From: Marsupella aquatica
Taxonomy: Eukaryota > Plantae > Marchantiophyta
Reading direction: 5' to 3'
Assembly (NCBI GenBank): GCA_973895155.1
Contig: OZ316896.1
Coordinates: 14,914,684-14,978,683, forward strand
Length of the DNA: 64,000 bases
Position numbers and translations under genes: made by a program. Below are positions 36,640 through 62,359 of this stretch, piece by piece; within the stretch, counting starts at the first letter, position 1, and each line of letters opens with the position of its first letter. The notes beneath the pieces are model-generated. The model searched no databases, was not told the origin of the DNA, and was given only the letters and a program-made list of their open reading frames with translations.

Positions 36640-36793
36640 TTACTCAGGCACACCTCTGAGAAACCAGCCAGGACTAGCACCACTACCAACCCAAACACAC
36701 ACTCCCTCCACAACCCTTGCATGTGGAGGGGGATTGAACCTGGGACCTCTCAGTTCTACTAGGCTATTCCCCAACTGACCAAAACCAGGTGCC
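36640..36793 (-). mobile_element. tRNA-derived SINE-like element
   Basis: Minus strand begins GGCACCTGGTTTTGGTCAGTTGG (A-box-like), has GGTTCAATCCCC (B-box) about 30 bp later, then a non-tRNA body. No clear TSD or tail. Confidence 0.55.
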
Positions 36794-37804
36794 GTTAAGT
36801 GTAGCATTTCTTGGCTTGCAAGTGAGGGAAGAAGCAGCCGGTCTTTAGGGAGCCTTTTATAAGATTCTGATAATAAGCATAGACTGAGCTTCAGTGATTC
36901 TCTTGTCCATTTCATACATGCATCAGTCAGTAATTAATACCAACTGTAGAACCATGGGGGTTTGTATGCTGCGAGGAAACAGGAGAAATTGAGTGACAGC
37001 GAGGTTAATGTTTGCTAGCGAGGTAAAACTAATGGTCAGAGTGGGAGATTGGGAGAAATGAATCTTTTTTCCAGAATGGGATCATTCCATTTTATGTCCA
37101 GCGAGGTCGCTAGCCTTCAATCATTGACAAACCATATGAATATACACAAGTGAAACGCCAGGCGGATATGAAAAGGCATAGTGAATGAATGAACTCAGAT
37201 TTAAAACCCGTTTTAAAAGTCATGTCTCCACAAAATTTACTGCCTTTAATACTTTGTCAAAACTGACAGTAAGTTTGAGTAAACATTGCAGGGATATCCC
37301 TCTATTCCCTCAAAAATCAGAAGACAGTCACTTGAATGACTTTCATCCGACTCGATCTATATCATTCCTACTACTAGAATTGCTCTGGTCACTGCTGAAA
37401 TCCCGATCAGTTGACTTTGTCAGCAGACTCATCAACATATTGTTTAACAAGGCATGCCTCATCGTCAACAAAAGGCAAGCAATATAAATTTCGTCTAGCG
37501 CCACGATGTGACCTACGACCTTTGCCTTCCCAGGTGACTACAAAAGCATTATCCGACTGAATCGTCGACTTCTCTGCATAGCAAGGCAGAATAAACGTCT
37601 TCTGAGGGGAAACAATGGAAGATTCTTCAATCTTCCTTCGAAGCCAAGATCTCTCTTCAGAAAACCAGTTGACACGAGTATGTCTGAAATCAGAAAAACA
37701 ATTAGAGCACTATGAATGAAACATCCAATCAAAAGACAATAGAAAGCTTCAACAGCCAATTGATTAAATCAAAGGGATCTGGTATAAGCGAGAGGATCAG
37801 TACA

Positions 37805-39138
37805 CTACTCCAGGTCAAATTCATCATCACCATCTTTTGAATCAGGAACATTAGGAGCTCCATCTTTGTTTTTTCCACTCTTTGATCCTGCAAGAGAAAA
37901 TTCATCATCTGAATCGAAGTCCTCCAAAGTTTCAGTGAGGTCTTCAATTTTCTTGTGTCTCTCAAGAACACTCTTCAATGCCTTCTCCACAGCACCATGG
38001 AGAACATCCCTGTCCTCGACCCCAACAACAAACCTCCCAGAGAGTTCTCCAACTGAAAATGAACTACCGTCTCCAATATTCCAATCAAGCACAATGTCTC
38101 TAGGCTTTGTGAGAAGCTCCATAACAGACTGCATGAATCCAACAGACAACCGACAAGAAACGGAAAAAGCTAACTCTGCCCGAGACTCTGCCCTGGTATC
38201 CCTTTTTGGATAACAAAGACTCAACATCGTCTTATCTGATGCATCTTCAGACGTGGCCAGAGGGACATACTCCGGGTCCTTTGAATTGGGATCTTCCCAC
38301 TGAATTCAACTCAACAAAAGACATCCAGCCTTAAGTTGCAAACCTGGAAAATAACAAAAAAATGTCAATTCATGAGTCAAGGAAGGCCAGCGAGATCGCT
38401 GTCAAAACAACATCCTATTTAATCCTGCAAAAATTACTCAAATCTCACCTCAATGTTCATGTCTGGCATCCACATCGGGGACCCCAATAAAATGTGGTAC
38501 TTCCGAAGGTGTTTTAAATTTGTTCCGCTGTTCAACAACAGCAAAAATTTGCTTTGTGTGGTTCAATTCTCCACTGTGGAGAACGGCCACATACCCATCA
38601 TCAGACAACATGGGCCTCATCACTCCAAAGAAATAGTAAGGGAGCTTCTCTGAAACCCAGACATTCCACTGAGGAACTTCCACATCGATCAGTGACACGA
38701 GGCCTCAGCCCAGTCAGAAGAGCTATGAACCCCAGATGGGCACCGGTTCCATTGTAAGGCTTCCCGGCCCGTTGATATATATTTAAGGGATTTGGGTGTT
38801 CCAGAAGAACTTGAAATCTCCGAAAGCCATTGATCCCCCTCCCCCATCCAAGAAAGTCAAACCTTCTTCATACTTATCAAGTCAGCCGTCAAACTGAGAT
38901 TACTCTTTGCAAGGAAATGTCTAAATGTCTTCTTCCATCCAACTGGAGTCCACAGAGCCTTGTCACACCCTCTCGGATTGAAATTTCTTCCTCATTAGAA
39001 TCTGACAACACTTGAACCTTTCTCTTCTTTTTCAGCCTTTGGGACCCTGACTTATCACCTCCTGGTTTAGTCACAATTTCAAAATCGGGTGACTCAGGCT
39101 CAACAAGATCCTCCTGACGACCATTATTCACAGTTTGA
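37805..39138 (-). pseudogene. 3' part of a decayed gene with a beta-class N4/N6 DNA-methyltransferase-like C-terminal domain (interrupted by CACTA copy 1)
   Basis: FMQSVMELLTKPRDIVLDWNIGDGSSFSVGELSGRFVVGVE resembles the SAM-binding block LLERLI...T.PGDIVLDPF.GSGTT.......GR.FIG.E. Upstream are AHLGFIALLTGL (possible degenerate D/SPPY region) and MRPMLSDDGYVAV (R.LK.GG-like). GT-AG intron at ~38448-38345; stops and frameshifts present. Confidence 0.6.
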
Positions 39139-39159
39139 CACTACAACACAATGACCCTC

Positions 39160-39665
39160 TTTTGCGAAACACCCTCCCTCGCATGCAACAAAGGAAACAA
39201 TATCGGCCAACTCCTTGTTGCGAAACGCCGCGCATCTCAACATCTTCGCTCTTTTCCATGCCCACACCTTCGCAACCGGACCTTTGCAAAAGCTTCGCAC
39301 TTTGCGACTCTTTTAAAATCGCAAAACTGCGATGCCATACCTAACGCAATATTTGCGAAATAGGAACTATAGGAGCGTTTGCAATTCGCCGACAAACACT
39401 AATGTAGCGATGCTTAAATCATCGCCAGATTGCGATTTAGGACACATCGGTAGATTGCGAGCCATTTTTTCTCTCAATACTGCGATACATTTATATTCGC
39501 TACATTTGCGAAATTAAACACATCTCAAACGTGCGGAAATCATGTGTTCGCATATTTGCGATTGACAAAATGTCGCAAAATTTGCGAGGATGAGCGGTTA
39601 GAACATTTTGCGATGGTTGTGTCTTGGCTATTTGAGATGACATCTGGTTCTCAAGTGTTTCGCAA
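39160..39665. repeat. Left subterminal repeat region of CACTA copy 1
   Basis: Many TTGCGA/TCGCAA motifs in both orientations. Confidence 0.85.
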
Positions 39666-39919
39666 AAGGTATTTTTGAAGTATTAGGGTATAATAGGGTT
39701 TAGTGGTTTAGGGAGACAATTCATACAGTTGAAGGAGGGAGAAAACGGATGTAGGTAGACTGGAATGCCGCGATTAAAATGGCATTACTCAAAATGTACA
39801 AAAGTTACAAAATGGAAGCGTAAGAACCCTTATCTAAAAGTTGCATGTCCATGCTAATCCCCCTATACATGTGAACTACCTAAGTCTCTAGGGTAATCTA
39901 GGCACCTATCTAGATAGAG

Positions 39920-42053
39920 CTAGAAAGGAGAGTTCCTGCCCCTCCTTGACTTCTTCCCCTTGGCCTTCTCCTTGCCCTTGAGTGCTCTTGGGGGGGGACC
40001 GGGGCCTCCTCCTCTTGGTCTCCCTCCTCATCCTCATCCTCATCCTCATCCCCATCACCACCACCATCCCCATCCCCATCCCCATCACCATCACCATCCC
40101 CATCCCCTACCGCACTACCACTCGCAGCACCAGTGGAGTGTGCTGATGCAAATGACTGCTCCCCAGTGCTAGTTGGCCTGACTCAACTAGCAGGAGCAGT
40201 ACTCCCCTCCCCTGTCCCCTCCTCATCCTCATCGCTACTATCACCCTCGGTATGGGAGTCACCATCATCATCCGGTCTCTGTTACATTAGCAAACCAGCC
40301 ATGCATTAGTCATATAGAACCTTACAATTAAGTGAATGACATAAGAGGGAATTTTTCATAAATGCAATCCACACATTAACCTGAAAATTAACGCTCACCA
40401 ATAATTGATCAACTTGCCGAAAGAGATGCTCCTTCCCATGTTTCTGGCCCACCTCCATCTCAGGCGTTATGATCTTCCTCTTGTACCTCTTGTACTAACC
40501 AAAACAAAAACCGGCACAATTGGTCAAAACCAAGCAATAACGGCAAGCCAAAATGCCTTAAAACAATTAGAGGGGTTAATTAGGTGCTGGTGGGGTTGGG
40601 GCTTAGGTTGGGGGGTGGTTTTACAAGGGTGGCATGGGGGCTTACGACCCTCAAACAACACTTCAACATTTTGAAATTTTCAAAAATTCAAAATTTTGAA
40701 TTTTGCAAAGTCTCCAGCTTCGCAAACGTAAGGGAAAACTAGGTTGCAAAAGTAATTAAGATACGCATGGCTTCGCACGGGCATCGCAAAATTATTTCCA
40801 AAAAATTGAATAACAAGGTGTGCGAAGCAGTTGCAAAGCGACGCGCATCGCAATTGCTTCGCAAACTCTGTTATGACAAAAAGTCAAAAGGGAAGCAAAT
40901 GTACGTGACCTAATCTGACACAACAACTCCAATTGGAAGTACTTGGTGCCACAACAAAAAAGAGTTGGGGCATTGCAAGTGTGTTGGAATAGAAATTGGA
41001 GGAGTAAGAAGTCAAGAGAGGAGAGGGCGGTGCACTCACAAATGCTGCTTTGAGGCCGGGGAGGCCACCTTGACCAAGCCTGTGGGTGATGTTGGGCTTT
41101 TCTCGGACTCTCTCAGCTGCCTTCAAGAACTTGTTGGGCGGATCTCCCACCTCTGCTACAACCTGCTGCAGCTCGGCCACCTTCTGCTCCATCATCTTCA
41201 GGTCACGGTTAGACTTCCCGGCCTCCTTTGCCTTCTGGGCCTTTGTCAACTTCTCTGTAAATTCATTCAGGACCCTGGCTGCTTTCAACTTCACCTCCGT
41301 GGCGTAGAAGGCCTGCCAAATATCTTCTAAGAACTGCAACGGCCTCCCCAAATTCCTGTACTCCTCCAGATCTCTCAGGTGAGCCTTGATCTTCATCCTG
41401 TCATGGTATCGTGCTGGTGACATGGAATTTGAGATTTTATCAGCAAGCCACTGTGAATCCATCTCTCCTCCATTTTGGAATGCATCTTTCACCTGATTGA
41501 TCACTCGCTTCTGCTCTGCCTTGGAGAGAGTGCCCCACTCGACTCCTCTTGCAAAATTTGTGGACACAATGTGTCTGATTGTGCTCTTGGCCCCATTGTA
41601 AGCAAGCTCTGTGGGAATTCCCTCATCCTCTAATGTAATCAGAGGCAACTTCCTCCTTGCCTCCTCCTTCTTTCTCTGCTCCTCCCTCTGTTTCCTCATC
41701 AAGTCTCTCTCATCTTTCCTCCTCTTCTTTTCCAAGGCTTGAGGGGAGAGTACTCCAGCCTGAGCTCTCTCATCCCTCTTTCGCTTCTTCTCAGCGGCCT
41801 TCTGCTTGGCTGTCCTCCTTTCTTCCTCCTCTCTTGCTGCTTCCCCTGCACTGAGACCAGATTGCAAGGCCTGGCACAATAACGCACTCAACGATGCAAG
41901 CCCTGCTGGAGAGGTGAAATCAATCTTACTCAACTGCGCAACCGAGAAATGGTCATCCACGATCTTTTGAAGTCGATCCTCCTCCTCTAAGTGGTTGCCT
42001 CCGTTGCTGCCAGAAGCTCCTCCATCATCTCCAATTCCCCCTCCGCTTGCCAT
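39920..42053 (-). pseudogene. CACTA ORF2 (TnpA/Ptta-like), divergently oriented; exons 42053-41040, ~40494-40399, 40278-39920
   Basis: Exon 1 is an intact ORF with a charged coiled coil and KPNITHRLGQGG (HRLG motif of Ptta/Transposase_24-type proteins), followed by a GTGAGT donor. The acidic, Gly-rich last exon has a premature TGA and a frameshift and ends ..KKSRRGRNSPF*. A homologous gene exists in copy 2. Confidence 0.7.
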
Positions 42054-42369
42054 CACTCCTCCCTCGCCTGCGCTGCTCTCTCCCAAGGCCCGAAAGAAAT
42101 GGATCCGCCTCGTCCGCACTCGGCAAATGATAAGGATAGTAGAGTTAGGGTTTGCGAAGTCATTCGCATCGCAGTTTGCGATGGTTCTACCTTCTCAACC
42201 AGCTTCGCAAACGCTATCTTTGCGAAGAATACAGCTTCGCAAACGTGTTCGCTATTGGGTTTACGAAAACCCCCATCTTGCATGTGTATTTTCTGTGAGC
42301 AGGGATACTAAGAGGGGTCATAAACATTAAATTTGGTACAAGTAATTCATTGCATGTGATCATATAAGG

Positions 42370-42800
42370 GTTGGGGGGTTTAAAAGTGCTGACATTGGAG
42401 GGTAAGAGGAGGGGTCTTATGTTACGGCTTTTGGGTTTGGCCTGGTTGGGGGGGAGTGTTATTTCAGAAGGTTGGGGGTTATATTGGAAGGTAAGAGACG
42501 GGGATTTATATTTTGGCTTTTGGGTTTTGCCTGGTTGGGAGGGTTTTTATTTTATGAAGGTTGGGGTTATGTGTATTGGAGGGTAAATGGAGGGATTTTA
42601 TGTTTGACGTTTGGTTTGGTTGGGGGAGGGTTTATTTTATGAAGGTACGTTGGGCTTAGATTGGAGGGTAATATGAGGTGTTTTATGTTTTGGGTTTGGC
42701 CAGGGGGATTTCATTTTATGAATGTTTGGCTTATGTATTGGAGTAAGAGGAGGTGTTTATGTTTTGGCTTTTGGGGTTTAGGCCAACTTAGGAGGGAAAG
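42370..42800. repeat. G/T-rich ~88-bp degenerate tandem repeat (5 units) between the divergent CACTA genes
   Basis: TTGGAGGGTAA core at ~42396, 42484, 42576, 42661 and 42738, each followed by TTATGTTT..GGCTTTTGGGTTTGG. Confidence 0.75.
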
Positions 42801-44032
42801 ACAGGTTCTATTTTCATGGACACTTGGGTTAATTTTATGGTAACTTATGAGGGCAAGTTCTAAGAGGTTTTTATACTAACAATTGAGGGGAAAACCCATG
42901 TAATCATGATACAGCCCAGGGACATCACTACTTCTTCAACTTTTGTCTAATGCATATGCATTGTGGAGACCCAGGCATCTAAAAGGTATAACATGTATGT
43001 AGTGTTGTTAGTGGAGATTTTTCATAAACCTTGCCATTTTTTGTTTTGCAAGAATACTTATGTGTAACTTATGTTTGGGGTTCCACAACTTGAGAGATGC
43101 TAATGACTATCCAAAACTTACATTTTGTTTCCAGTATTTTCCTCCTACTTCTAGATTTGGCTCATGTTCATTGAGCCACACGACCTATAGGCACTGTTGA
43201 GCCCGGGTCTCATTCAGGTAATTCACTAACCTAATTCAGGGCTTAGACCATTACAATTTTCCCAAGGGTGACAATGTGATATTTTTGTGCATGACACTCT
43301 CCTTTGGGTTTCATGCTAAACAAAAAAGGGTTTTTGTAGTTTAGTTTTAGGATATTTTTTGGCCGAGAGGGATTCTAATCATGCCCTACATGCAATGTAA
43401 TGTGGCAGTGGATATGTCATCCTCCTCTAAACTATCCAGTAGTGAGTACTCCTCCTCCGATGATGTACCCCCTCCTCCTCAACCTGAGGTTACCGGTCCT
43501 CGTGGTCCTCCCCGGAGACTTTGTGAGTGCACCAGATGTGTGGGCCAAGTTTCTCAAAAATCTTATGTGTGTGCTCAACATATTGAGAGATATGGACGTC
43601 ACAGGGGTCTTACTCGGGGGGCTTCTTCATCCCATATGGTACGTGGATTTCAATTGTTTGCCTTTTTTCCCTCATATTTTCATAAGTGAATCAATGTTTA
43701 CACATGGTTTTTTGTGGGTTTTTGCATGGAATAGGGATCAAGTATGCGTAGACCGGTGACACCACCACCCTATGTCCCATCACAAGGAGTTTTAGATGCT
43801 ATAGGCAATGCACTTTCACAAGCCTTGGGTGTAGGGATCAGTACCAATCATGGGACTGAAGAGGAACAGTCTCATGTGCCCACTGAGACACGAAGACCCC
43901 GGTCCAGGCCCCAGTCCAAGAGGAGGCCACGAGCACCCAATGACCCATCAAGAACACTAGTTGAGGGTAGGTGGGGCATTTGTTCATTCACTGGCAAGTG
44001 TGCCTCTATCATCAAAGATTGGGATCCTATGA

Positions 44033-44330
44033 TGTTAGGAATTGACTCCAGTTCCCGACATAGTTAGCTTGGTCTTACTAGGGTTAGTTAACCCTAGATT
44101 ACATTTGGATAAGATCCGTTTAGTTTAGGCCCACTCATCTTGGCCCCCTTGGGGGGTATAGGCTGGAGGGAGAGCACTCTCTCCCTCATTCTTCACATGT
44201 ACTCTCATTTGCTATGTAGCCTTCAGGAGTTTCTCCACTCGGGGTGTCTTGTCGGTGTAGCATGTGATTGAGTGAGTCTCTCTCTCATGTTTCCGCATTG
44301 CTGTCTAGTCCGGAGCTGACGTTTCTTACA
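44033..44330 (+). repeat. Copia 5' LTR
   Basis: TGTTAGGAATTGACTCC...GTTTCTTACA, preceded by TATGA. Confidence 0.97.
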
Positions 44331-44332
44331 AG

Positions 44333-44344
44333 TGGTATCAGAGC
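44333..44344 (+). promoter_or_regulatory. Primer-binding site (initiator tRNA-Met)
   Basis: TGGTATCAGAGC, 2 bp after the 5' LTR. Confidence 0.93.
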
Positions 44345-46037
44345 TTTGTGTTCATGGTTTGGTGGCTTGGGTAGTGATGAGAGCATTCGTTGTGTTGGAT
44401 CGTGGTGGAAGATTGAATCATCGTCGATGATTGTGTGATTGTTTCACTGGTCGTTTCGCGTTGAAGATTTCGTGAATACAGTGACGGTTTCCCGATTGAA
44501 ACTTCAGCCTGGAGTGTCGGATGTGTCTCTGTTCTTTGATGTACTGTCAAGAGGACAGTCTAGCGATCTCTTATGCGCGTCGGTGGGCACTACATTTTGG
44601 TGAAGGTTTCACTGCTTTTCATCATTGGTGTGCCGAGTAATCTTGTAGATGAGGTTGCTGTTTAGAGCTTGATGCTCTAGGTTATGGCTTGTATATGTTT
44701 CGACTTAATCTTGTGTGGGGCCGAAAAAAAAGTTGTTTTCTTTGTAAAAAGGTCGTGCGTTGAGGGACCGGTGTTGCAATTTTTTTGTTTTCGTATACTT
44801 TTGTTTGTGCCGCCTCGCAACAGAATACGGCGGCGCGGATGGGTTTCTTTGCGTATGTGCGGAGAGAGGGCGAAAGGGAGATTTTATTGCCCGGGCACGT
44901 TGCCCTATGCGCGCGAGTGAGCTAGGAGGGCTCGGAATACAAAGGATTGAAGGAGGAGCAGAGGAGAAAGTCGAGCCCCTGGCCCGAGGCCCTATGAGGT
45001 ACTAGAGCACGGCCTTATGTCTGTGCAGGTACAATCGTACCTGTAAGTACAGTTTTAAAGTGAGGGGAGGGGGAGTTCAAAGCTCCCTTCTCTTGGGAGC
45101 TTTAAGGGGGCCATTGCCCTATGGAGAAGCAATAGGAGGGGAAAGGGGAAGCGAGCATACTCCTTTCCTTAGGGAGCACTTATTAACATGGGCACGAGGC
45201 CCTATGCTTGTACTTTAAGTGAGGAGGGGGAGCATACGAGGCTCCTTTCACTTTGGAGCCTTTAATTAAGGCTTGCGTCAGGTGGGTGGCCAAGGACACA
45301 AAAGGTACTACTGTACCTACACAGTACAGATTTGGGAGGGGGTACGAGGGGGTATTATATATCCCTGTACTCTGCCAGGTACAGCATACACAATAGGTGA
45401 ACAAGGAGATGGGCCGGCGTGCGACCCTATGTGCGAGAGGATTTTTTTTGAAAAGTAATTGAAGGCCGGGAGGATGATTGTAGTCTTTTCGATCTTATTT
45501 TTTTTTTGTAAAAGCCAAAGGGTTTTTACTTGTTTTCTTTTCTTTTCCTTCCGTGTTTGGATCTTTTCTTTTCCAATCGGACAGGTGTCGGCTCCACGTT
45601 CTTTCTGCTGTACATTTTTACTGTACTTTGATTCCCTGGAAAAGATACTTTTCTAGAGAGCTGATTTTTGACTGAAATTTTCAATTTCGGCGGTCGTCGA
45701 GGCAGAATTTTTTCGCGACACTTTGCAAGGGGATACTCAAGGGAGTTGAGCACGGGCTAGTGAAATTGATTTGTGCGTTGCTGTTGTGAAATTTTTTCGG
45801 GACCTAAGATACCTGACGGGGGGAAAAAAATAGCCATTTTGACCCCCCTCTGGTCCGGGTTGAATAAGTTTTTGCTGAAGAAGTTTTTCGCCAAATTATT
45901 TTCAGATCTTGGCAGTGTACCTTGCAGGCTACGCGGCGGTGCATTCCATTTCCACTTTCGCCAACTTTCAATTTTTGGTGAATTTTTGGGTGGAGGTATT
46001 TCGGTTGTGTATTTCCTTTGTGTTTGTGGCAGCATCA

Positions 46038-49000
46038 ATGACTTCAAGAAAGCTTGCAGTGCCAAAGTTTGAGGTGGAGAAGTTTGATGGGAAGGTCAGC
46101 TTCAGCCTCTGGACTCGAAAGGTGACCAATGTGTTGATCCAGCAAGGTCTTGAGAAGACCCTCACTGGAGTGAAACCCTCGAATCTAACAGATGAGGAGT
46201 GGGAGGACATGTCGGTGTAGGCATGTAGCACAATTGAGTTGTTCTTGGCAAACAACATTCTCAAGAACGTGTTGGGGATGGATCGGAATGCCAAGAAGAT
46301 CTGGGATATGCTTACTCAGCTATACCAGAGTACTTCGTTGACTACTCGCATTTATCACTTGGAGCGGCTGTTCAGGTTGAAGTTGAAGGATGGTGGCAAC
46401 ATGCGTGATCACCTCAGTCTCTTCGATGAGATTGTGCACGAGGTGACCACGGCAGGAGACAAGTTGACCGATGAGTATCTTGCGATGCATTTGTTGATGT
46501 CGCTTCCTCAGACCTATTCAACATTGGTGACGGTCATCACACATGACAAGTCTACGTTGAAATTGGATGAGGTGAAGGCTACCGTTGCAGAATGGGGCAA
46601 GCGAAAACTTTCTGGCCGTGACAATGAGTCTGCTGCCTTAGTGGTTAGAGGCAGATCGACGGAGCGTACTACGGATCAGTCTAGATCTAAATCACATAGT
46701 AGATCTAAATCTAAGTCCCGTAGTAAGAAAGTTCAGTGTTGGCATTGCCATGAGAAGGGCCACACCAAGTGGAATTGTCCTTCTCTATCGAAGCAAAAGC
46801 GTCCTGCTTCCAATGGTGCATCCTCATCGTCAGCTGGTATTGTGATTGCTGATAATGAGGATGCTGCTGAAGTGCTATGTATTGGTGCTGTGAATTCTGT
46901 GTATGACAATAAATGGATGTTGGATTCGGGTTCCTCTTATCACGTGTGTCCAACGCAATCGTATTTCTCCACTTACCAACCTTGTACCGGTACGGTGGAA
47001 ATCAGAAATGGTGTTCGATGTGCGATTGTTGGCATGGGGACTATCAAATTCCGGATGTTTGATGGTGTTGTGCGAGCATTGACGGGAGTCAGGCACATAC
47101 CAGACATCTCTAAGAACTTGATTTCTCTTGGTGCTTTGGAAGCTGGTGGATCTCATTTCACTGCACGTGATGGTGCGCTCTTTGTCGTCAAAGATAATGT
47201 ATCTTTGATTAAGGCGCTACGGCAGAATAATTTGTACATCTTGGAAGGAGATGTCATTGCTCCTAGAGTGGAGCATGTGGATTCTGTGATGGAACGTTCG
47301 GATGCAGCAGCAACATCTGCTATAGAGTCATTTACGGCTGCTTCAATTGAAGCACCCTCAACATCTGGTCGCACACAAGCCATAGATTTGTGGCATGCAC
47401 GGTTGGGGCACTTAAGCGGTAAAGGATTGGCAGCCTTGGCAAACAGAGATTTGCTGCAAGGCGCTCAATCTGGTAAACTCTCTTTCTGTGAAGATTGCAT
47501 CTTCGGCAAGCAGAGGAGAGTGAGTTTTAGTTCTAGTTCATACCATTCTCATGAAATTCTTGAGTATGTACATTCGGATGTTTGGGGTCCAGCGCCGGAG
47601 CCGTCGTTGGGTGGAGCCAGATATTTTGTGACATTTGTAGATGATTACTCTCGAATGTGTTGGTTGTACTACATGAAGGAGAAGTCTCAAGTCTTTGAGA
47701 TTTTCAAGGAGTGGAAAGCCATGGTAGAGCTCCAAACTGGGAAGGAGTTGAAGTGTGTTCGGTCCGATAACGGTGGCGAGTATAAGTCCAATGAGTTTGA
47801 TCAATTTGGTCGGGACCTTGGCCTCAAGCGTCATTACACTATACCGGAGACCCCGCAGCAGAATGGAGTTGCAGAACGGTTGAATCGGACATTACTGGAG
47901 AAAGCACGCAGCATGCTATGTAAGTCCAAGTTGCCCAACAACTTTTGGGCTGAAGCTATCAACCAAGCTGCATACGTCTACAATCTGTCACCGCATAGTA
48001 GTAAGTTGATGCAGACTCCATTTGAGTTGTGGTATAAGAGACCTGCTGATTACTCTAGACTTCGAGTTTTTGGTTGTGCTGCCTATGTTTACATTGAGCA
48101 GACACACAGGTCTAAGTTGGATCCCAAGTCTAAGAAATGTATTTTTCTAGGCTTTAGTCCTGGGCAGAAGGGCTATAAATTGTGGGATCGTGTCGATTGC
48201 AAGGCAGTTGTGAGCAGAAATGTTGTTTTTGACGAAGAATGGTTGTCAAGACCCCGGGATATTCAGGAGGAACAGGTGGAGGAACCCACTACGGTGGAGC
48301 TTGGTGGTGATGAGGAAGCTGTTGGTCCCTCTGGTAGAGGAGCAATTCATCAACCAAGGCGCTCCACCAGGGCCAATTTTGGCCAACCCCCTGATAGATT
48401 TGGTTTTGCAGATCCTCGTGTTCACGTTGTTGAACATGACGTTGATCCCGGTGTTGTTTTGCTTACTGAACATGGAGACCCCTCTAGCTATGAAGAAGCT
48501 ATGGCCTCTCCAGAGAAGGATAAATGGTTGGAGGCGATGTTGAAGGAGATGAATTCTTTGAAGAAGAATTCAACTTGGCGCTTAACTGACATGCCTCGCG
48601 GGAAAACACTGGTTCCGTGTAGATGGTTGTACAAGAAGAAGCAGGATGGCACTTACAAGGCACGCCTTGTGGCCAAAGGGTACACCCAGAAGGAGGGCTT
48701 GGACTACACGGAGATTTTCTCACCAGTTGTCAAACTCGCTACTATCCGTGTTTTACTTGCGATTGTGGCATTCTATGATCTTGAGTTAGATCAGATGGAT
48801 GTAATTACTGCTTTCCTGCATGGATTGCTTGATGTAGAGATTTATATGACTCAGCCTCCAGGTTTTATTGACGAGAAGACCAGACACTTGGTGTGTAAGC
48901 TCTTGCGCTCGTTATACGGATTGAAGTAGAGTCCCAGACAATGGAATAAGCGTTTTGATTCCTTCATGTTATCTCAGGGGTTCACACGAAGTGAACATGA

Positions 49001-50674
49001 TTGTTGTATTTACATGAAGGAGGTGAAGAATTACTCACGTTTAGGTTACATTGTGCTGGCATTGTACGTGGATGACATGCTTATCCGGACCCAAAAGGAA
49101 CGTCACACTCAGAAGTGACCATAGTTTATTATGCTTTAGGACATCATTTGTAAGGTGTAATGAGATGATATGCAAAATTTGATGTACTATACTTAATAAA
49201 CATCCTGTAGGTTGGTAACATTAATTAAACTATCTAGCATTTGAGACTTTGAAGCTTTCCTTATATGTCCTTCAAAGATCGATAAAAGGACTTGTCACGC
49301 AACGAGTCACATCATTTCAGGACTCGAAAGGACTCTAAAACTTGCATTTTAGACAATGAAATTTTACCAAGGCATGCATACTAATAGAATAATCTTATAT
49401 TTTAAAACTCAAATATTGACACACACTAAACCTTTATGTACAGGACAAAAATAATTAGTAATTTTGGCTTATTTAGGGCCATCAATAATAGGATCCCTTA
49501 AAAAAGTTAAAAACTTGATTTATCTACATGGTGAGGTAGGTTACACCATGTAAAATTATCTTGTGAAAAAATTAGACTTAAATGTCTTGAGATAAAATCA
49601 TGATGAAGCTTTTTCCATGTTACGAAAGTCATTTTTCACTAAAAAAACATGTTTTTGAGTCTTGAAAGTGGTTCCTGTGAGGTACACCCAGTTGTGAATG
49701 AGGCCATCCTGGCTGAGAATAAGTCTGATGTTGCCCATCTGAAAGCAATGCTGAGTAAGGAGTTTTCAATGAAGGACTTGGGTCAGGCCAAGAAGATACT
49801 AGGGATGGAGATTCATCGTGACAGGGAGCAAAGGCAATTATGGTTGTCTCAGAGGCAGTATTTGGAGAAGGTACTTGCCAAGTATGGAATGGAGAATGCA
49901 AAACCAGTTGGTACTCCATTGGCCTCCCACTTTAAACTCTCAAAGGATGATTGCCCTTCTAGTGAGAGTGATAGACTGGCAATGAAACATGTTCCCTATG
50001 ATAGTGTTGTGGGTAGTTTGATGTATGCAATGACATGCACTAGACCTGACATTGTCCACGCTATTAGCATTTTGAGCAGATTTATGGCAAATCCTGGTAA
50101 GCTTCACTGGGAAGCAGTGAAGTGGGTTTTGCGGTATCTGAAAGGTACCTTAGATTGTGGGATCTTATTTGACGGTAAAGCAGACTCTACATTAGAATTG
50201 GAAGGTTTTGTAGATTCAGATTATGCTGATAACTTGGATAACAGGAAGTCTACTACAGGCTATGTGTTTATGCTGGGTTGAGGTTGTATCAGCTGGAAGT
50301 TGGCAACTCAATCTTGTGTTGCGTTGTCTACTACTGAGGCTGAGTACATGGCTGCATGTGAGGCAACCAAGGAGCTGATCTGGCTAAGGAGATTGGTGAG
50401 TGATCTGGGTCTTTCACCTAAAAGACCGGTGTTGCTGTGCGACAGTCAAAGTGCTTTGCATCTGGCTAAGAACCCTGTGTTCCATGCCAGGACAAAGCAC
50501 ATTGATATTCGTTATCACTTCATCCGTGAGACGATTGAGACGAAGCAGATGTTTTTGGAGAAGGTGGCTTCAGAGGAGAATGCGGCAGACATGCTTACCA
50601 AAGTTTTACCTACCAGTAGCTTTAGTCATTGTGTGGATATTATTAATGTTAGGGCCAAACTGGAGACTATGTAA
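46038..50674 (+). pseudogene. Copia gag-pol polyprotein (disrupted)
   Basis: KFEVEKFDG; Zn knuckle CWHCHEKGHTKWNC; protease WMLDSGSSYH; GAG-pre-integrase WHARLGH; integrase VHSDVWGP, RSDNGGEY, QQNGVAER; RT YKARLVAKG, QMDVITAFLHG, LYVDDML; RNase H VDSDYA, STTEAEY, ENAADMLTK. Stops at 46220, 48929 and 50281; insertion at 49087. Confidence 0.95.
49087..49705. mobile_element. 619-bp AT-rich non-autonomous insertion in the Copia RT, with 4-bp TSD
   Basis: Flanked by ATCC (49083-49086, 49706-49709); termini GG...CC. Removal restores YVDDMLILAENKSD. Confidence 0.85.
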
Positions 50675-50741
50675 ATATGTTACTTAGTTGCATATTGTAT
50701 ATCACCTGACTCATTGTGTGAACTTGAGTCAAGGTGGAGAT

Positions 50742-51039
50742 TGTTAGGAATTGACTCCAGTTCCCGACATAGTTAGCTTGGTCTTACTAGGGTTAGTTAA
50801 CCCTAGATTACATTTGGATAAGATCCGCTTAGTTTAGGCCCACTCATCTTGGCCCCCTTGGGGGGTATAGGCTGGAGGGAGAACACTCTCTCCCTCATTC
50901 TTCACATGTACTCTCATTTGCTATGGAGCCTTCAGGAGTTTCTCCACTCAGGGTGTCTTGTCGGTGTAGCGTCTGATTGAGTGAGTCTCTCTCTCATGTT
51001 TCCGCATTGCTGTCTAGTCCGGAGCTGACGTTTCTTACA
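50742..51039 (+). repeat. Copia 3' LTR
   Basis: Copy of 44033-44330, preceded by the PPT and followed by TATGA. Confidence 0.97.
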
Positions 51040-51826
51040 TATGACTCTTGGCTTGCCTTATTTTCCCGGTTATGATGAGGAGATTGTGGTTTGGGGTAGA
51101 CGTTGGATTGTGAAAGCTTCCACACTTGGAGAGAGACACAGATATGGAGTATTTGCTTGTGAGGATATCATCATGGATGATGGGAGTGGGTCAAGTGCTC
51201 ATGGTAGAGAGGGTCCTACTTTATTCCCATACGGTGTACCCATCTACAAGAGAAGACACTGGAACATGATCCTTGCAGAACATCCTGAGTGGAAAACATA
51301 TGCCTTGGAGATGGATACTTTTCATGGTAGCACTAGAAGGTATAGTGAGCAGCGGGTGATAGACGATGATCCCGTACGTAATGGGAATATTGCTGGCTTT
51401 ATAAATAGTACTGTGGGGATTCGACCCAAGCGTAGGGCCAATTGTGAGTGGGTTTTTTATTGATGGCCCAATGCCGGCACCATATGGAACGACATATCAT
51501 AAGGACCATTGCTTAGTTCTTGCCACTAGGACTATTAGAGCTGGAGATGAGTTATTCACACACTATGAGTGGGATTAGGGAGCCATGTCATACATCCTCT
51601 TGTACCTTGTGTGTACTTCACACTTATCATTATATACATGTCCTCTGGCCTCATTTTGGAGTAGTATAATTTTGGTGTGGCCCTTCACTTAAGTTCTTAA
51701 TGTGAATGCATGCAATCAATCCTTAAAACTGATTGTTAATTTGTCTTGAATGAATGGTCTGAAGTCTGTTTTTTTTGTACCTGGTGAAATATACATCAAG
51801 AGGTTTTTTGGTTGTGTCGTGCGTAG

Positions 51827-54800
51827 AATGTGCAACCATCTCAACAAATGTTACCACGAAGGTTGAGAGCAGCATATCGGGAGATGGGCATGCCAGAAGA
51901 GGGAGAACCATCAGAGGATGATTCCTCATTAAGTAATGATGTAAGTGATCATGGTGATGAGGAAGCAACACCTCAGACTGATGACCAGGTCATGCATGAC
52001 CAGGACAGAGCCATGGATGACTTCATGGTTGATTGGTTTGGTGCTGATGTTGAAGATGGTGTCCCTGACATTAGTGTTGAAGGAGCTGCCCCCCAAAATG
52101 ACCCACGATCACAACATACTCCAGAGGGACAACAACAATGGAAGGAGGCTGCGGAACATGCCCGAACACCTATCTTTGAGGGTGCTCGGTTGAGTCGTTT
52201 GTCAGCCATATTGGGGTTGTTGAACATTCAGGCCAAACATAAGGCAAGCAATTCTATGTTATCAGACATATTTGAATATTGTCATGACTTGATGTTACCC
52301 TTGGAGAATGTGTTGCCTGGAACTTGGAAGGATGCAAAGAAGATTCTCTCATCCATTGGCATGGATTACCATATCATTCATGCCTGTGTGAATGATTGCA
52401 TATTATTTCATGGGGACAAAGCCCATATGACAGAATGCACAGTATGTCATGAGCCACGGTATGACCCAAACATGCTAACCGGGAAGGTGCCAAGAAAAGC
52501 AGTTCGTTGGTTCCCCATTATTCCTCGTTTGTTGCACATGTATAGATGTTCTGACTTGGCCGAGTTGATGGTATGGCACAAGAAGCATCGTTCGGAGCCC
52601 GGTGTGATGCAATTACCAGTTGACTCTCCTGCTCATAAACATGTGGAGTCAACATGGCCAGATTTTGAGCGTGACCCTCGGCATGTGCGACTTGGGTTGG
52701 CATCAGATGGGGTTAGCCCTCATTCACTTGGAGGGAAGGGGAGACCTACATCAGTTTGGCCAGTGGTTCTCATGAATTACAACCTTCCACCATGGTTGTC
52801 CATGAAAAAGGGTTTTTTATTGCTATCTTTGATTATCCCAGGGCCAAAGAAGGTGAAGAACATGGACACCTATTTGGCATTAGTGGTTGAGGAACTCCAA
52901 AAATTATGGGACGGAATATGGGCATATGACGGTCAAAAGACTACAGGGGGTACCCCACGGGTTTTTAAACTAAAAGGGGTTTGTATGTGGACCATGCATG
53001 ACTACCCAGGTAAGAACTATGAAACTACAACACTTTTTTTTGTTTACATCCAGCATGATATGATAATGCATGTTATCCCGTCATTTCCATGTGCTAATTC
53101 TACATTATGTGTGTCTATATGACCAGGATTTGGCTTTGTGAGTGGGTTGCAAACCCAAGGCTACAAGGCTTGCTCCACTTGTGGCCCAAGTCTTGGTGAT
53201 ATAGCCAAGTACTCATCACACCTTCACAAGATTGTTTATCTTGGGCATACAAAGTTTCTGCCAATGGGCCATCAGATGAGGTTTGACCCACTACTATTTT
53301 CCTCCATTGATATGCCCTTTGGTGATGAACGTGATATACCAGAGCCAACAACTTTTGCACATTGGAAAGACTTGGCTGATAGAGTGGCAAACCCGGAGGA
53401 TCCCATGCAATTTGAGGGTAGCGGGTTGACTAGATGGAGTATATTAACCACTTTGCCTTATTGGGGAGATCGAGTTGAAGATCCGCCATCTATTAGACCC
53501 CATGCACATTGAGGGAAATGTGGGAAAGGCTTTCTATGGAGAAAAGGACACTAACTTCAGGGAGGCTTGTGAGGATCTTGAGATGCATCCAGATGTATGG
53601 GTCACAATTGATCCTATCACAGGGATAGAACATCGACCTTCAGCCCCATGGGTGCTTCCTGTTGGCCAGAGAAGGGAGTTTAGGAATCGCATAGGAGGCA
53701 TGCGGTTTCCTACTGGTTATGGTGCCAATCTCCGGAAGGCCTTTGGGATGGAGGACAATCATAAGTGGCCAATGTATCTCAAGACGCATGACTATCATCG
53801 GTTATTGCAGCATATATTGCCCGTGGCCATAATAGGTTTGGCAAGTTCAGAAGTGCAAGATGCCATTTGGTCATTGGGAAAACTATTGAGATGGGTATGT
53901 TCTAAGGAGATATACTGTGAAGAGATCCCGGGAATGGAGGTACTGGCAACAGAGGTGGTATGCAAGTTAGAAAAGGCCCTTCCTCCTTCCTTTTTTGATT
54001 GCCAAGTGCATTTACTTGTTCATCTTGTTCATGAGGTGGCCATTGCTGGTCCTGTGCATTGTCGGTGGATGTATTGGTTGGAATGGTACATGGCAGTATT
54101 AAAGGGTTATGTACGTAATCGGGCACGGGTTGAGGGAAGCATGGCTACAAGATACTTGGCAGCAGAGAGTATGTTCTATTGCAGTAACATATTAGCCACA
54201 ATTGATCGTACCTCTCCCCGTACTTGGGTAGAGGAGAGGGAAGATGAGGAGGATCGTTTAACAGGTGCTATCAAAACCCGCATGTTGACACCAGTGGAGT
54301 TGAAACAACTAACCACATTCATGTTGAGTAACAGCACTATCATGGAAGAATGGAGGGATTTCTATGAGGATGCCAAAAGTACCAGTAGAAGACCAAGGAT
54401 CTTTCCAAAGTACCATGACTACATGAAGGAGAAGTTGGTTGAGGTGGATGACATGGTAGCGAGGGGAGAGAATGTATTACATTTTCTAGCCATCACAGAT
54501 GATGTCCGTACCATTGTTCATGGTCCCTTGAGAATGGTTACAACAAGGACGGCAATGTGGACACAAGGGAGACATTTCAGGTTATTTCCAAGTACCTTAG
54601 TAACCTTTCATCTATGGTGATTTTAATTTATGTGTAATACACCCACATATATTGAAGAGACAATTTTTTGGCATGTGATATTAATTGTTATATGTTTATG
54701 CCTATTTTTGTAACATGTCCTTATGGTTTGGTTGATTTTAGGGTTTCTTCCCTTGATGAGAAGAGGGGTCGTACCTTTGATTGTGGAGTTCAAGGACAAT

Positions 54801-55231
54801 TCTCTCAAGATTCCCGCAGCAGTCGCCATGACACAAATATTATTCGAGATGTTGTGCCACATTATGGAAAGATAGAGGAGATCCTAGTGATCTCTTATGA
54901 TGCACAATCAAAGTTAAATGAAGAGTATGTCTTCAAGTGCAAGTGGTTCAAAGTGAACCTTGCAGGTAACAATCCCACCGTGCTTCAAGATGAGTGTGGA
55001 TTTACACGGCTAAAGACATCTGCCACTAGTTTCTAGCCATCTCATTGGCAAACATCAGAGCCGTTCACTTTTCCAAGTCATGTGGAACAATGTTTCTATA
55101 TTCCATACCCCCCAAACCCAGAGGAATGGTCACTTGTCATCACATATGTGCCACGATCTCGTTCAGTTGTTGGGGAAAAGCCAGATATTCTGGTTGTGTC
55201 CCAACCTGAAGAGGATGAGGACCAAGTTTGA
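51827..55231 (+). pseudogene. CACTA transposase (TnpD/Tnp2; Transposase_21, DUF4218, DUF4216), copy 1; exons 51827-53009, 53127-54580, 54742-55231
   Basis: IHACVNDCILF, YFP-like WFPIIPRL, RHVRLGLASDG, WPVVLMNYNLPP, MHDYPG, RHLLDPMHIEGN, LKTHDYH, PPSFFD..VHLLVHL, GPVHCRWMY, LKGYVRNRARVEGS, FKCKWF, EPFTFPSHVEQCFY. Frameshift at ~53470 and stop at 55036. Confidence 0.95.
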
Positions 55232-55919
55232 GGGGTATATGTTATGTGGATATATAGTTAGATTTGAACATATGAGGATCTCTCTTCTTGGTTGGAGAAA
55301 TATGTGTTTCTAAATGATTAATAAATTTATGTTTGCCCAAATCAATCTTGTAAGTATATCAATTTTAAATGTGGCTTTTTTACATCTTCCATCCCCACAG
55401 TCCTATGTACACTCCCACACCTTTTGGTACACTTTATGAAAAGAAAACTCATCTCGCTTGTAGTCATTCCTCCTCGTAGCTTTCCTTCTCCCACCCCCTA
55501 GCCTTTCTCTCTAGTACTTGTACCCACCTCCCTCCTCCCCTTGTCTCAACCCCTTCCTTTTTAAAACCTATAGATGCCCTCAATTTTTTCCACCTTTCAC
55601 TGTCCTCAACCTATGCTCCTCCCTCCTTGGCTTGTCCCTCTCCTAAACCTATACCTTCCACCCTCCCTCCCTCCTCCCTCCTTTCCTTTTCCCTCCCTAA
55701 ACTGTAGGTAGGTACGCTCCCTCCTCCCTCATTTCCTTGTGCACCCTAAACCGCCCTACTCCTCCTCCCTTTGTTCCTTGTCCCCCCTTAAGTCAACCCT
55801 TCCTCCTCCTTTTCTTCCTAAAGTGTGCCTCCTCCCTCCTCCCTCCTCTCTCCTTGACCCTCCTTCCTCCATTCCTTGTCCCATGCCCTTTCTAAATCTG
55901 ACCAACCCCAAAACCAAAT

Positions 55920-56445
55920 TTCCGAACCATTTTGCGAACCCCCACCCATCTCAACCTAATGGCTACATTAACGATCCCTACCTCATCGCTAGATCCCATC
56001 CCAACACCATCGCTACATTCCGAAGCAACTCGCATCTCAACTTTCCGAAACTCAAGCCTTCTCTAAAGAGAACCACTGAGGCGCCATGATTTTGCGAGCC
56101 ACAATATCTCGCAAACTAGCGATTCTCTTAGTTTTGCTGTATTGCGATTAATTTTGCATCGCACGCCGCTTTCAGATAACAAAAATATCACAACGTTATC
56201 GATGCAATCGGCGTCGCAAGTTGTTTGCGAAACGGTAAACATCGCTACTAAGTAGAATGCTCAAAGGTTCAGAAACATTTTGCGACATATTTGGTTTTGC
56301 AAATATTTGCGAAGATGTTGGTTTCACAAATAATGGTTGCGAGAGTGTCAGTGTCGCAGTTTGAGATGCGGTTTGCATCGCAAGATGAGTGATGAACGGC
56401 GCTTTGCGGTGCGTTTATCCCCTTGTAATTGACCTTCGCAAAAAT
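55920..56445. repeat. Right subterminal repeat region of CACTA copy 1
   Basis: Dense TTGCGA/TCGCAA motifs, preceded by a C/T-rich low-complexity tract at ~55480-55880. Confidence 0.85.
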
Positions 56446-56466
56446 GGCAAATATGTAGTAGTGTGA

Positions 56467-57777
56467 ACACTCTCAGAACCCGAAGACTTCCTCCTTTCTG
56501 GATACAAAAAGCAACCTAAGAGCCTCAAGATATGTCATAAAATAAATGAGAAGAGCAGCTTGGGAGAGATAACAAATTAAAGTAAGCTTTGGAGAGATGA
56601 GAGTATACTTACTTTTCTTTCCTGAAAGCATAGAGCTGTCTTTTGATACCTCCTTGGCAACATCTCTCTTCAATTTCCGAGGGCGGCTCCCCAATTTCCG
56701 AGGGTGCCACCCAAGGCATGCTTGCTCCATCAACACACAGCCAGCAATTTCTACTTCCGGGTTGCACAATTTAGATGCACTAATAAAAGATTCTGGGGAC
56801 CAAGCCACGATTGGCCTTTTGAAGCGCAACTTTCTATGTCACATCAAATGTTAGTGACCAATTCTCTGAATCTAAATACCACGGTCGACAATGCAACACC
56901 TCCCATTCACTTATCTTTTGCAAGGGTTCAATGTCCTCAATAGGGTACATCAAGTACTCCCCAAACTTCTCACAATCGGAATCATCTCTTGCATATTGCG
57001 CCCATTGAGAGAAGCATGTCGCCCGGGTAACACCACCAAAAAGATCTATTTTCCACCTCTCAATCAACAAAAAACCTGTAAACATACCTTTCGGCCCTTC
57101 GCTTGAAAGCAGCAATGTCAATCTTTTCCCCAACTTTCGGGGTCTAGATGCTCTTGAAGAACCTTACCTTAACCCGCTGTAGGAAATCTTCAAACTCATC
57201 ATCAATTTCAACAAGGAGGGATGCCTGACTATTCTCCGGGGAAGAAAGAATTCTAGACTCAGGGACAGTGAGAATAATCTCAGAGATTGCTTCACTTAAT
57301 AAGCACCTCGCAATGGACTCTACTTGTTCCCAAGTAGCCCATCAATGCAACCAGAGCTTGGTCTCACTATCTGAGAATTGAGATGGATGGAAATACTGTT
57401 TGCGCAACTCTGGTCTGCACTGTGCTTCGAGAAGAGTGCATCGGAGTTGTGGACTCAGAGAAGTTACCCCAGTGAAAAGCCTTGCACAATCAAGGCCACA
57501 CGAAACATTCCCTTATCATCCGTCCGCTGAGCTTCTTTCCTTCTTTCTCACAATAATTGTGCATCTCAACACATTTCTTGAAGAAATCCCCAAAGTCTGG
57601 ATTCAGAAGTGGGGCAAACTTTGGACCTTTGACATTCCAGTTAGAGAGTTGCTCCTTCATCATATCTCAAACTGCAATGTCCTTTGCTGCTTTGGACAGA
57701 GGTTCGCCAAGTTCCTCCTTCAGTGCAAACTTCTTCAGCAAGTCAGCAATTTGCGAAGCTATGTTTGCAGCTGAAAG
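56467..57777 (-). pseudogene. Middle part of the decayed MTase-like host gene, lying between the two CACTA copies
   Basis: Long protein-like frame with scattered stops (LSAANIASQIADLLKK..., KLWLH*WATWEQVES..., KRRAERYVYRFLLIERW..., WEVLHCRPWYLD...). GTAAGT..TAG intron at ~56610-56516. Joins 39138 in frame across the TSD. Confidence 0.65.
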
Positions 57778-58460
57778 CACTACAACACTACCCACACCTT
57801 TTGCGAACTTGAAAGCATCGCAAACAACAAAGGAAATCAAAAAACAAAACTCGCCTTTGCGAAGTATCGCGCATCGCAATAGAATCGCAAATTGCGAAGC
57901 CCAAAGGTTCGCATCCGGTCTTTCGCAAGACCTTCGCAACGCCTTCGCAACTTGCGACACTAATAGAATCGCAAAGGACTCACATTTAAGCGACTCCGTG
58001 GGCGTCGCGAGAGGCTTGCGATAATAATCAAGCAGTTAAATATTTGCAATCCCAGAAGTTTGGTAATCGGTTTGTGATATTAAGTTAATGGTAGTTATGC
58101 CATGAACATGGCTTCGCATTTTTGTGAACGTATGTGGTTTGCATAATGTTTGCGATACCTTCAATATGGTAAATATGCGAATTGGGTTGTTCGCATAGGT
58201 TTCGCAAGATGTCTTGAGGCTAGGGTTTAGATTTAGAGTTTTGAATTATGGTTGGGGTCTTGTCGTCCAACACGGAGAATGAGGTCTGAATCAAAATTGC
58301 TTTATAGAAAATTGATAGGTACACAAAAATTAGGGTTTCCTAAACCCTAAACCCTAGATGGGTGTCATATGACAAGCTAGGTCCCTATAAGACTACCCAT
58401 ATCAAAACTATATACTACACTAAGTAAATGGGCATCCCATAGGCACTACACCACCAAGCT

Positions 58461-59737
58461 CTAGAATGGGGTCCTCCTACTCCTTGTCGCCGGCCTCTTC
58501 CCCTTGTCCCTCTTGCGACAATCCGGACGTGGCACAGGAGGTGGTGCTGGCTGCTCCTCCACATCTGGTTCCTCCTCGTCCTCGTCCTCATCCTCTTCCT
58601 CCCCCTCCTGCTGGGAAACTCCTCCTACTGGTCTAGATCCACTACTCCCTCCTACCTTGGGCCCCTTTGTCGTGGTCCCCTCATTGTTCTCATCGGTGCT
58701 GCTGGTATCACTGGCATCCTCATCATCCTGTTTGCACAGCACAACGCCAAATTGGTTTAGGTTTACGGAATGAAAAGATAAGTGGATTGGGTGGGAAAAA
58801 CTGAAGGGGATACATGCACTTACAGTCGCCAACTCTGCGTCAACCAAGTCAAAGAGATGTTTGGCTCCATGCGCAGCTCCTATCTCCATCTCTTTTGCTG
58901 TTATCTTCCTGCGGTACCTCTTATACTACCACAACCAAACATTCCAAAACTTTCTCAGCCATTGCCTTGAGCTCTCGGTCGGACTTCCCGGCCTTCTGTG
59001 CCTTGGCTTCCATCTCCTTCCAGAAGAGAAGGTTCCTGGCAGCTCTCATCTGCACCTCCACTTTGTAAAAGGCATTCCACACGTCCTCAGTGAATTGCAG
59101 TGGCCTCCTCACGTTTCTGTACTCCTCCAAGTTTGCCAGGTAGGCCCTTACCTTCTTCCTATCATGGTACCGTGCTTGAGACATTTGCCTTGTTGAGTTT
59201 CCCCCACTCAACTCCTCGTGCAAAATTGGAGCGCACCATAAGCCTGATAGTGCTCTTTGCCCCGGTGTAGGCCAGTTCAGTAGGAATGCCTTCGATCAAG
59301 GCAATCATAGGCAGCTTCTTCCTCTCTTCCTCCTTCTTTCGCTGCTCCTCCCGCTGTGCTCTTATCTCATCTCGTTCCTCTCTCCTCCTCTTCTTTTCTA
59401 GGGCAGCAGGTGAGACTACTCCTGCCTTGGCCCTCTCCTCCTTCTTACGCTTCTTCTCTCTTGCCTTCTGTTGAGCTGCACTCCTTTGCTCCTCCTCCCT
59501 TGCAATGTTCCCTGCATCTACTCCCGTTTGCAAGGCTTGCCCAAGGATTGCACTCAAAGAAGCAATCCCTGCTGGTGTAGTCAAATCTAAGTGGCTCAAC
59601 TGTGCTGCATTGAGGTGCTCAGCCATCAAATCGGTCCATCGATTCCTCTCCTGCTCCCCATTGCCTTCATTCCCATTGCCACTGTCACTCACCCCTGCCC
59701 TATCACCTCCATTTGCTCCACTGGAATCCATAGCCAA
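58461..59737 (-). pseudogene. CACTA ORF2 (TnpA/Ptta-like), copy 2, internally deleted
   Basis: Homologous to 39920-42053 (EGIPTELAY.GAKSTIR, NFARGVEWG, ARYHDR, LEEYRN). Frameshifting deletion at ~59190, and loss of the HRLG segment plus most of intron 1 at ~58940. Ends ..RSRRTPF*. Confidence 0.75.
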
Positions 59738-62183: not shown

Positions 62184-62359
62184 GGTTAAGTTAAGGGTCA
62201 TAGGTGGTATGTTGCATATCAAAGGGCACTACATATGGCCTTTGGCCACATTTTGTATTTGCACCACAACCAATATTATTTCATTTTTGCACACCCCTAG
62301 CCCATTTGTGTGTGTGTTCTCTTTGCAATATAACTTTCAATTGTTTGCTTTGTTTTTAG

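Follow-up and report, generated by a model that had tools for sequence, protein, structure and literature searches.

The locus described here lies in a 64,000-nucleotide stretch of the genome of the liverwort Marsupella aquatica (contig OZ316896.1, positions 14,914,684 to 14,978,683 of the forward strand), and 'the window' is used for this whole stretch. It contains a decayed, intron-bearing gene on the minus strand whose product would include a domain resembling the beta-class DNA amino-methyltransferases (PF01555), and which was interrupted by two transposons of the CACTA type, CACTA1 and CACTA2. The original prediction, made from the letters of the DNA alone, had taken it for a disrupted host gene of the prokaryote-type N4/N6 DNA methyltransferase kind; the observation is confirmed and extended here, and the interpretation is supported in part. 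The features are listed from low to high coordinates, with SAM standing for S-adenosylmethionine.

36994..37342, strand not assigned: multi-copy non-coding tail that contains a palindrome (37100-37111) and two half-sites (36998 and 37017)
37343..37683, minus: last exon, with W..EER..LRRK...SPQKTFILP.YAEK...FVDDEA; its end is approximate
37684..37808, minus: intron c, phase 2; includes the TAG first read as the end of the gene
37809..38343, minus: exon for the SAM-binding half, with the SVGFMQ helix, motif I DWNIGDG (38086-38066) and FVVGVED
38344..38448, minus: intron b, phase 0, at a conserved position; contains the palindrome AGCGANNTCGCT at 38389-38400
38449..39138, minus: remainder of the interrupted exon, with a linker, the catalytic strand, ALLT at the motif IV position (38723-38712), VPQWN and RPMLSDDG
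39139..56463, plus: CACTA1 insertion, with Transposase_21, DUF4218 and a SET-like exon; nested Copia element; 3-bp target duplication TGA
56467..56497, minus: start of the exon interrupted by CACTA1, placed by empty-site contigs
56498..56612, minus: putative intron a, GTAAGT...CCAG, phase 1; called from sequence, homolog DNA spanning it being absent
56613..57777, minus: 5' coding part of about 388 codons, truncated upstream by CACTA2, with at least six in-frame stops and at least two frame changes
57778..64000, plus: CACTA2 insertion, with a SET domain (61368-62180) and Transposase_21; exits the window and covers the start of the gene

The relationship between the two halves of the gene was examined at the CACTA1 site. 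The element runs from terminus to terminus between 39139 and 56463 and is bordered by two copies of TGA (39136-39138 and 56464-56466), and removal of the element together with one TGA leaves the minus-strand frame open over the junction (RRKSSGSESV/QTVNNG). In four public sequencing runs (X1, X2, X3 and X5), contigs that omit exactly 17,328 bases at this site were present in X1 (two contigs) and X2 (one contig), and an empty-site contig was not found in X3 or X5. The X2 contig has 147 letters on its short side, where it differs from the window at nine positions, and a depth of 103 against 18 for single-copy DNA; because of these differences and this depth it is taken to come from paralogous copies that lack the insertion. 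Two proteins of the liverwort Calypogeia fissa, P0032 and P0057, correspond to both sides of CACTA1. Residues 3-58 of P0032 match 57314-57147 (34.8 bits; best of 300 shuffles, 25.2), residues 1-39 of P0057 match 56914-56795 (32.5 bits; best of 300 shuffles, 25.2), and residues 520-603 of P0057 match the last exon (63 bits; best of 300 shuffles, 28.9). The open frame at the junction, the empty-site contigs in two of the four runs and the C. fissa paralogs together bear out the proposal that excision of CACTA1 rejoins a single decayed minus-strand gene.

The rejoined gene has three GT-AG introns (56612-56498, 38448-38344 and 37808-37684, termed a, b and c), as the suggestion of spliceosomal introns required. 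Intron b occupies the same position in metagenome locus L001, its acceptor being visible in locus L002, and intron c has the same position and phase in L002. Splicing of intron a would yield a basic KKRRKSS stretch resembling a nuclear localization signal. About 920 codons lie inside the window, with the start outside it, hidden beyond CACTA2, so the gene is indeed large within the window alone. The span first proposed, 57777-37805, stands as regards the rejoined halves and falls as regards the end at 37805, since the TAG there lies inside intron c and one more exon continues to about 37343. The motifs named at the outset are all present (TKPRDIVLDWNIGDGSS...GRFVVGVE, HLGFIALLTGL and RPMLSDDG). 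The FVDDEA motif of the last exon (near 37460, minus strand) is conserved as FVDDxA in P0057 and L002, and presumably resembles interaction motifs of the FxDxEA type, such as occur in chromatin and elongation factors. A Pfam scan of the 5' part and the last exon returned no match better than E = 0.058.

Decay is evident along the whole of this gene model. In addition to the lesions of the 5' part, the exon at 38449..39138 carries one stop and several frameshifts, and the exon at 37809..38343 is broken by a single stop at 38313 and a single change of frame near 38285. In the homolog-supported frames this amounts to at least eight stops and several frameshifts, three inside the methyltransferase domain. 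The stop at 38313 is absent from related copies in all four runs, as are the 4-base extras at 37416 and 37352, and the 4-base extra at 38684 is absent from them in three runs. With its stops, its frameshifts and its two CACTA insertions, the window copy is dead.

The two CACTA elements share some further features. Both have a SET-domain exon 5' of the transposase (in CACTA2 at 61368-62180, plus strand, PF00856 E = 6.2e-6), which in CACTA1 is split into 43750-44043 and 51044-51575 by a Copia long terminal repeat (LTR) retrotransposon. This Copia element occupies about 44030-51040, has LTR segments that are 98% identical, and is matched by empty-site contigs in all four runs. Both CACTA elements also carry an open reading frame on the opposite strand (40884-42194 and 58464-59791, minus), possibly TnpA-like; the DNA of the two is 72-74% alike in matched stretches, and an informative Pfam match was not found for them.

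The identity of the domain was studied through its relatives. Among representatives at 50% identity, the C-terminal piece of the window gene has 48 matches at E <= 0.001, and half of these (24) reach E <= 1e-10. Alignment A2 has 30 rows and excludes the weakest matches, which include bacterial-type methylases and one unrelated repeat protein. Of 30 proteins looked up, seven are named by organism: six paralogs from C. fissa, spread over five contigs, and one protein from Riccia sorocarpa, both species being liverworts. The window piece alone matches PF01555 at E = 0.002 (18.6 bits, below the gathering cut-off of 26.7) and M1.HpyAVI at E = 0.057. The PF01555 match is weak, and the assignment rests on the family. 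There, 25 of the 30 members match PF01555 at E <= 0.1, the best at E = 9.7e-7, and the A2 profile matches CcrM (6PBD) at E = 2.4e-6 over 190 positions.

A structure model was prepared for the paralog P0013, whose own match to PF01555 (23.5 bits) is below the cut-off of 26.7. The model has a predicted local distance difference test score of 61 and a predicted TM-score of 0.55. Foldseek returned 44 matches at E <= 1e-3 (best 5.8e-8), and the 25 matches listed were all DNA amino-methyltransferases. The same was true of the top 11 entries in a VIA search of all representatives (Z 11.2-14.0), which was headed by CcrM (Z 14.0, root-mean-square deviation 4.2, 191 residues aligned), with MT-A70 proteins ranking lower at Z <= 9.8. 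The motif order of the window copy is permuted, the motif IV position (38723-38712) preceding motif I (38086-38066). As judged from the profiles and this model, the domain has the beta-class amino-methyltransferase fold with the beta-class motif order. The assignment to the N6_N4_Mtase fold and order first made by eye is thereby upheld by the CcrM profile match, Foldseek, VIA and an alignment of the Riccia protein with a phage enzyme, and a Rossmann methyltransferase check on the relatives placed beta-class DNA enzymes best, ahead of MT-A70 and other folds. We reject the idea that the domain is an RNA or small-molecule methyltransferase, since folds of those kinds reach Z <= 9.8, beneath the 11 beta-class entries. 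Matches to DUF3667 in eight of the 30 members were treated as chance similarity on an LLTKPG stretch.

Wider searches were also carried out. A pattern scan of metagenomes confirmed 2 of 255 candidates, and similar pattern-limited scans confirmed 0 of 46 in IMG/VR (viral) and 0 of 9 in GTDB. Longer proteins were not recovered, either with the window piece in a word-seeded search (0 of 217 candidates) or with alignment A2 among proteins of 794-2265 amino acids (0 of 6403), each being a weak negative for the full-length form. In the Atlas, unnamed clusters came first and PF01555 clusters next, and an N-terminal domain was not named among them.

The catalytic motif was then compared across the family. 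In the motif IV alignment, ADCIVIDPPT of Riccia stands with VDCIITDPPF of the phage enzyme, ADMGFIFLPN of Calypogeia and AHLGFIALLT of the window. The register depends on the pairwise Riccia-phage alignment and on the P0013 model, in which the motif IV loop follows strand 48-52; when profile A3 was compared with one phage enzyme, only the SAM half aligned (probability 66). Since HLGFIALLTG aligns with the motif IV of both the family and the phage enzyme, the right stretch had been picked out as a degenerate catalytic motif. The canonical (D/N/S)PP(Y/F/W) occurs in none of the ten sequences that span motif IV: eight read xLP[N/T/S], one (from Riccia) reads DPPT, and the window has ALLT. To position the target amino group, an enzyme of this kind needs the polar catalytic residue of motif IV as well as the aromatic one. 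Both are absent in nine of the ten, and the aromatic residue is absent in all ten. Motif I is kept in the altered form DWxxGxG (D in 29, the first G in 28 and the second G in 29 of 30), and the acid of motif II (E/D) in 28 of 30. Judged by these alignments, the family lacks the catalytic signature and retains the SAM-side DxxxGxG. Because eight of the ten spanning members read xLP[N/T/S] and none is canonical, the loss is a family trait, in keeping with the earlier remark that the gene, its motifs being degenerate, may have been inactive even when intact. Conservation of the replacement across paralogs that are less than 50% identical would point to a selected pseudo-enzyme rather than decay. 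The locus gives no evidence for N4-methylcytosine (4mC) or N6-methyladenine (6mA).

The copy number and the borders of the gene were examined in the same runs. By summed contig depths, a rough guide, the median depth of the gene is 15 times that of its flank in X2, 20 times in X3 and 8 times in X5, with the 5' half of the gene similar in depth to the rest. A depth of 8-20 times the flank in three runs means that this is not a single-copy host gene. In the flank, an X2 contig is identical to 33530-36733, with 0 differences over 3204 bases. Single-copy sequence in X2 stops at 37023, so that the right edge of the repeat probably lies near 36994, allowing for a 31-letter word overlap. At this edge, neither a terminal inverted repeat nor a noteworthy tRNA or Rfam family was found. 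The observed/expected ratio for CpG is 0.43-0.49, against 0.67 for the nearby SCAMP gene, a level between those of the SCAMP and CACTA genes. Uninterrupted paralogs exist, and related copies include non-coding parts. The term 'host gene' is not supported for such a dispersed multi-copy repeat, non-coding parts included, and the aside that the gene was 'perhaps itself mobile' agrees with the many copies indicated by read depth.

The most likely interpretation of these data, to which we assign a probability of about 0.62, is that the locus is a CACTA-broken copy of a multi-copy, intron-bearing gene of beta-class fold without the catalytic motif. This gene likely serves a DNA transposon in an accessory role, and its product, when intact, would bind the DNA of its own element and not methylate it. 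That the repeat may be a transposon is suggested by the precedent of the algal Plavaka and Sola1 elements, considered below, and by its abrupt edge against single-copy DNA. An intact copy would encode a large nuclear protein with a methyltransferase-like domain, which, by analogy with METTL14-type pseudo-enzymes, might bind SAM and DNA without methyl transfer. Such a protein could recognize short AGCGANNTCGCT palindromes within the element, its putative target, and might modulate host silencing or transposition, probably of its own element. A bolder version, in which bryophyte transposons carry a bacterial-derived, intron-bearing pseudo-methyltransferase that recognizes their own palindromes (one of them intronic) and shields the element from host silencing by 5-methylcytosine, is speculative and rather unlikely.

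Several points weigh against this interpretation. The structure is that of a paralog, at moderate confidence, and not of the window copy. In the 5' pieces scanned with Pfam, from a gene whose start lies outside the window, neither a ParB domain nor a DNA-binding domain of another kind was found. Within the window, the repeat could be linked to no transposase, to no pair of terminal repeats and to no target duplication, its other end lying outside. Summed depths are not copy numbers, and the ratio from X1 (61 times) was excluded, as 57% of that run was read and its baseline included one repeat bin. As for the palindrome, AGCGANNTCGCT occurs exactly twice in the 64 kb, both times inside the repeat (38389-38400 and 37100-37111), a count that is circular because the pattern came from those two sites. 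Its sole independent support is a site in L001 that lies in the corresponding intron and departs from the pattern at one letter, which was matched in 4 of 200 shuffles and had been spotted by eye beforehand; in L002, which covers only part of the intron, nothing above chance was seen.

Alternatively, the amino-methyltransferases of intact copies could be active, their site having been rebuilt in a non-canonical form, and could place 4mC, 6mA or some other mark, either on the element that carries them or on a different substrate. Paralogs less than 50% identical share the SAM-side motifs and the new xLP[N/T/S]G loop, which implies selection; the Riccia member retains DPP; and PF01555 accessory proteins of algal transposons are proposed, by argument and not by assay, to modify their own element. 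Note, however, that the polar and aromatic residues of motif IV are together gone in nine of ten sequences and the aromatic one in all ten, and we consider this explanation unlikely. A domesticated, DN4MT1-like host multigene family, expanded by duplication and with the window copy as one pseudogene, would account for the conserved intron positions, the annotated genes in C. fissa and R. sorocarpa and the lack of any transposase or termini seen, and liverworts do possess a host beta-class enzyme. However, the non-coding parts are multi-copy too and end abruptly at single-copy DNA about 350 bases beyond the last exon, the copies are mostly 90-99% alike (all repeats of the stretch pooled), and DN4MT1 has the TSPPY motif that the repeat-borne family is without, all of which makes a host family quite improbable. 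Cargo of an endogenous virus-like element of giant virus or Polinton type, with introns gained later, is highly improbable: phage methylases are among the nearest named relatives of prokaryotic type (weakly, E from 2e-3 to 0.9) and the Atlas structure neighbours include phage ParB-methylase clusters, but no relative was confirmed in the IMG/VR or GTDB pattern scans, no viral hallmark was found in 39 further open reading frames scanned, and intron positions are conserved between distant copies.

These results have some consequences for annotation. On its predicted structure and aligned motifs the family belongs with the beta-class amino-methyltransferases by fold, but not by catalysis. Annotation pipelines put the label 'DNA methylase N-4/N-6 domain' on such proteins, which invites claims that more plants write 4mC or 6mA; a catalytic motif lost throughout the family speaks against such claims. 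The apparently intact paralogs, together with a candidate 12-bp binding site, would offer a concrete test of how elements may bind or protect their own DNA.

The remaining features of the window lie in the flank. An intronless SCAMP gene is present at 34390-35247 (plus strand; PF04144, E = 6.4e-50) and is single-copy by depth. A short repeat of very high copy number at 36704-36758 has, to the eye, a tRNA-derived look in the manner of a short interspersed element; ARAGORN and Rfam found no tRNA in it. The region 30139-31938 is also repeated at very high copy number and contains direct repeats, and a small CACTA-ended hairpin lies at 30097-30131.

Compared with the PF01555 enzymes (CcrM 6PBD, M.MboIIA, M.BceJIV, M1.HpyAVI, M.PvuII and M.RsrI), the repeat-borne family has the same fold, places the catalytic strand before the SAM motif, and retains TKPxDIVLD and the acid of motif II. 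It differs in that motif IV reads xLP[N/T/S] and DPFxGSG has become DWxxGxG, and in its introns, long N-terminal part, extra C-terminal exon and Pfam scores below the cut-off. A published account of a repeat-borne, catalytically rebuilt methyltransferase family in bryophytes was not found in a search that covered few subscription papers.

The enzymes first put forward for comparison were the bdelloid N4CMT, a chromodomain-fused host enzyme that deposits 4mC (PMC8885841; PMC10406627), and MpDN4MT1a/b of Marchantia, host enzymes with a TSPPY motif that are reported to make 4mC (bioRxiv 10.1101/2021.02.12.428880). They share the eukaryotic beta-class fold, and N4CMT structures are among the fold matches (Z 11.2). 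However, they are low-copy enzymes reported to make 4mC, and DN4MT1 keeps TSPPY, whereas the repeat-borne family is multi-copy and lacks the motif, and the frame of the window copy is broken. The comparison is therefore not supported, and the accessory PF01555 genes of algal transposons are the closer parallel. Loss of catalytic residues from an amino-methyltransferase fold is also seen in METTL14 and in the likely inactive methyltransferase domain of the DIRS1 retrotransposon (PMC4738411), which is mobile-element-borne as well. These belong to other structural groups, DIRS1 being PCIF1-derived and METTL14 of the MT-A70 type (Z 7-10 for MT-A70 against 11-14 for the beta class).

Closest are the algal genes. 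Plavaka elements of Bostrychia have two such accessory genes: PAG2 combines PF01555 and SET domains, and PAG3, which has a ParB-like domain, lies next to inverted repeats (bioRxiv 10.1101/2025.02.11.637652). Sola1-1_Ec32 of Ectocarpus carries a gene of 1104 amino acids with ParB-like and N4C/N6A methyltransferase domains; the authors of the latter study suggest that there is a class of accessory proteins which bind the element they come from and modify it (PMC12477816). Because red and brown algal transposons carry such PF01555 accessory genes, the earlier description of eukaryotic members as 'rare' was overstated. By description, the likeness is that of a large eukaryotic PF01555-type gene of similar size within a repeat. 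The Marsupella gene differs in its land-plant host, and transposase linkage, a SET fusion and a ParB domain were not found for it in the part that lies inside the window. Should the family prove to be carried by transposons, land plants would join the algae in having methyltransferase-like accessory genes of this class.

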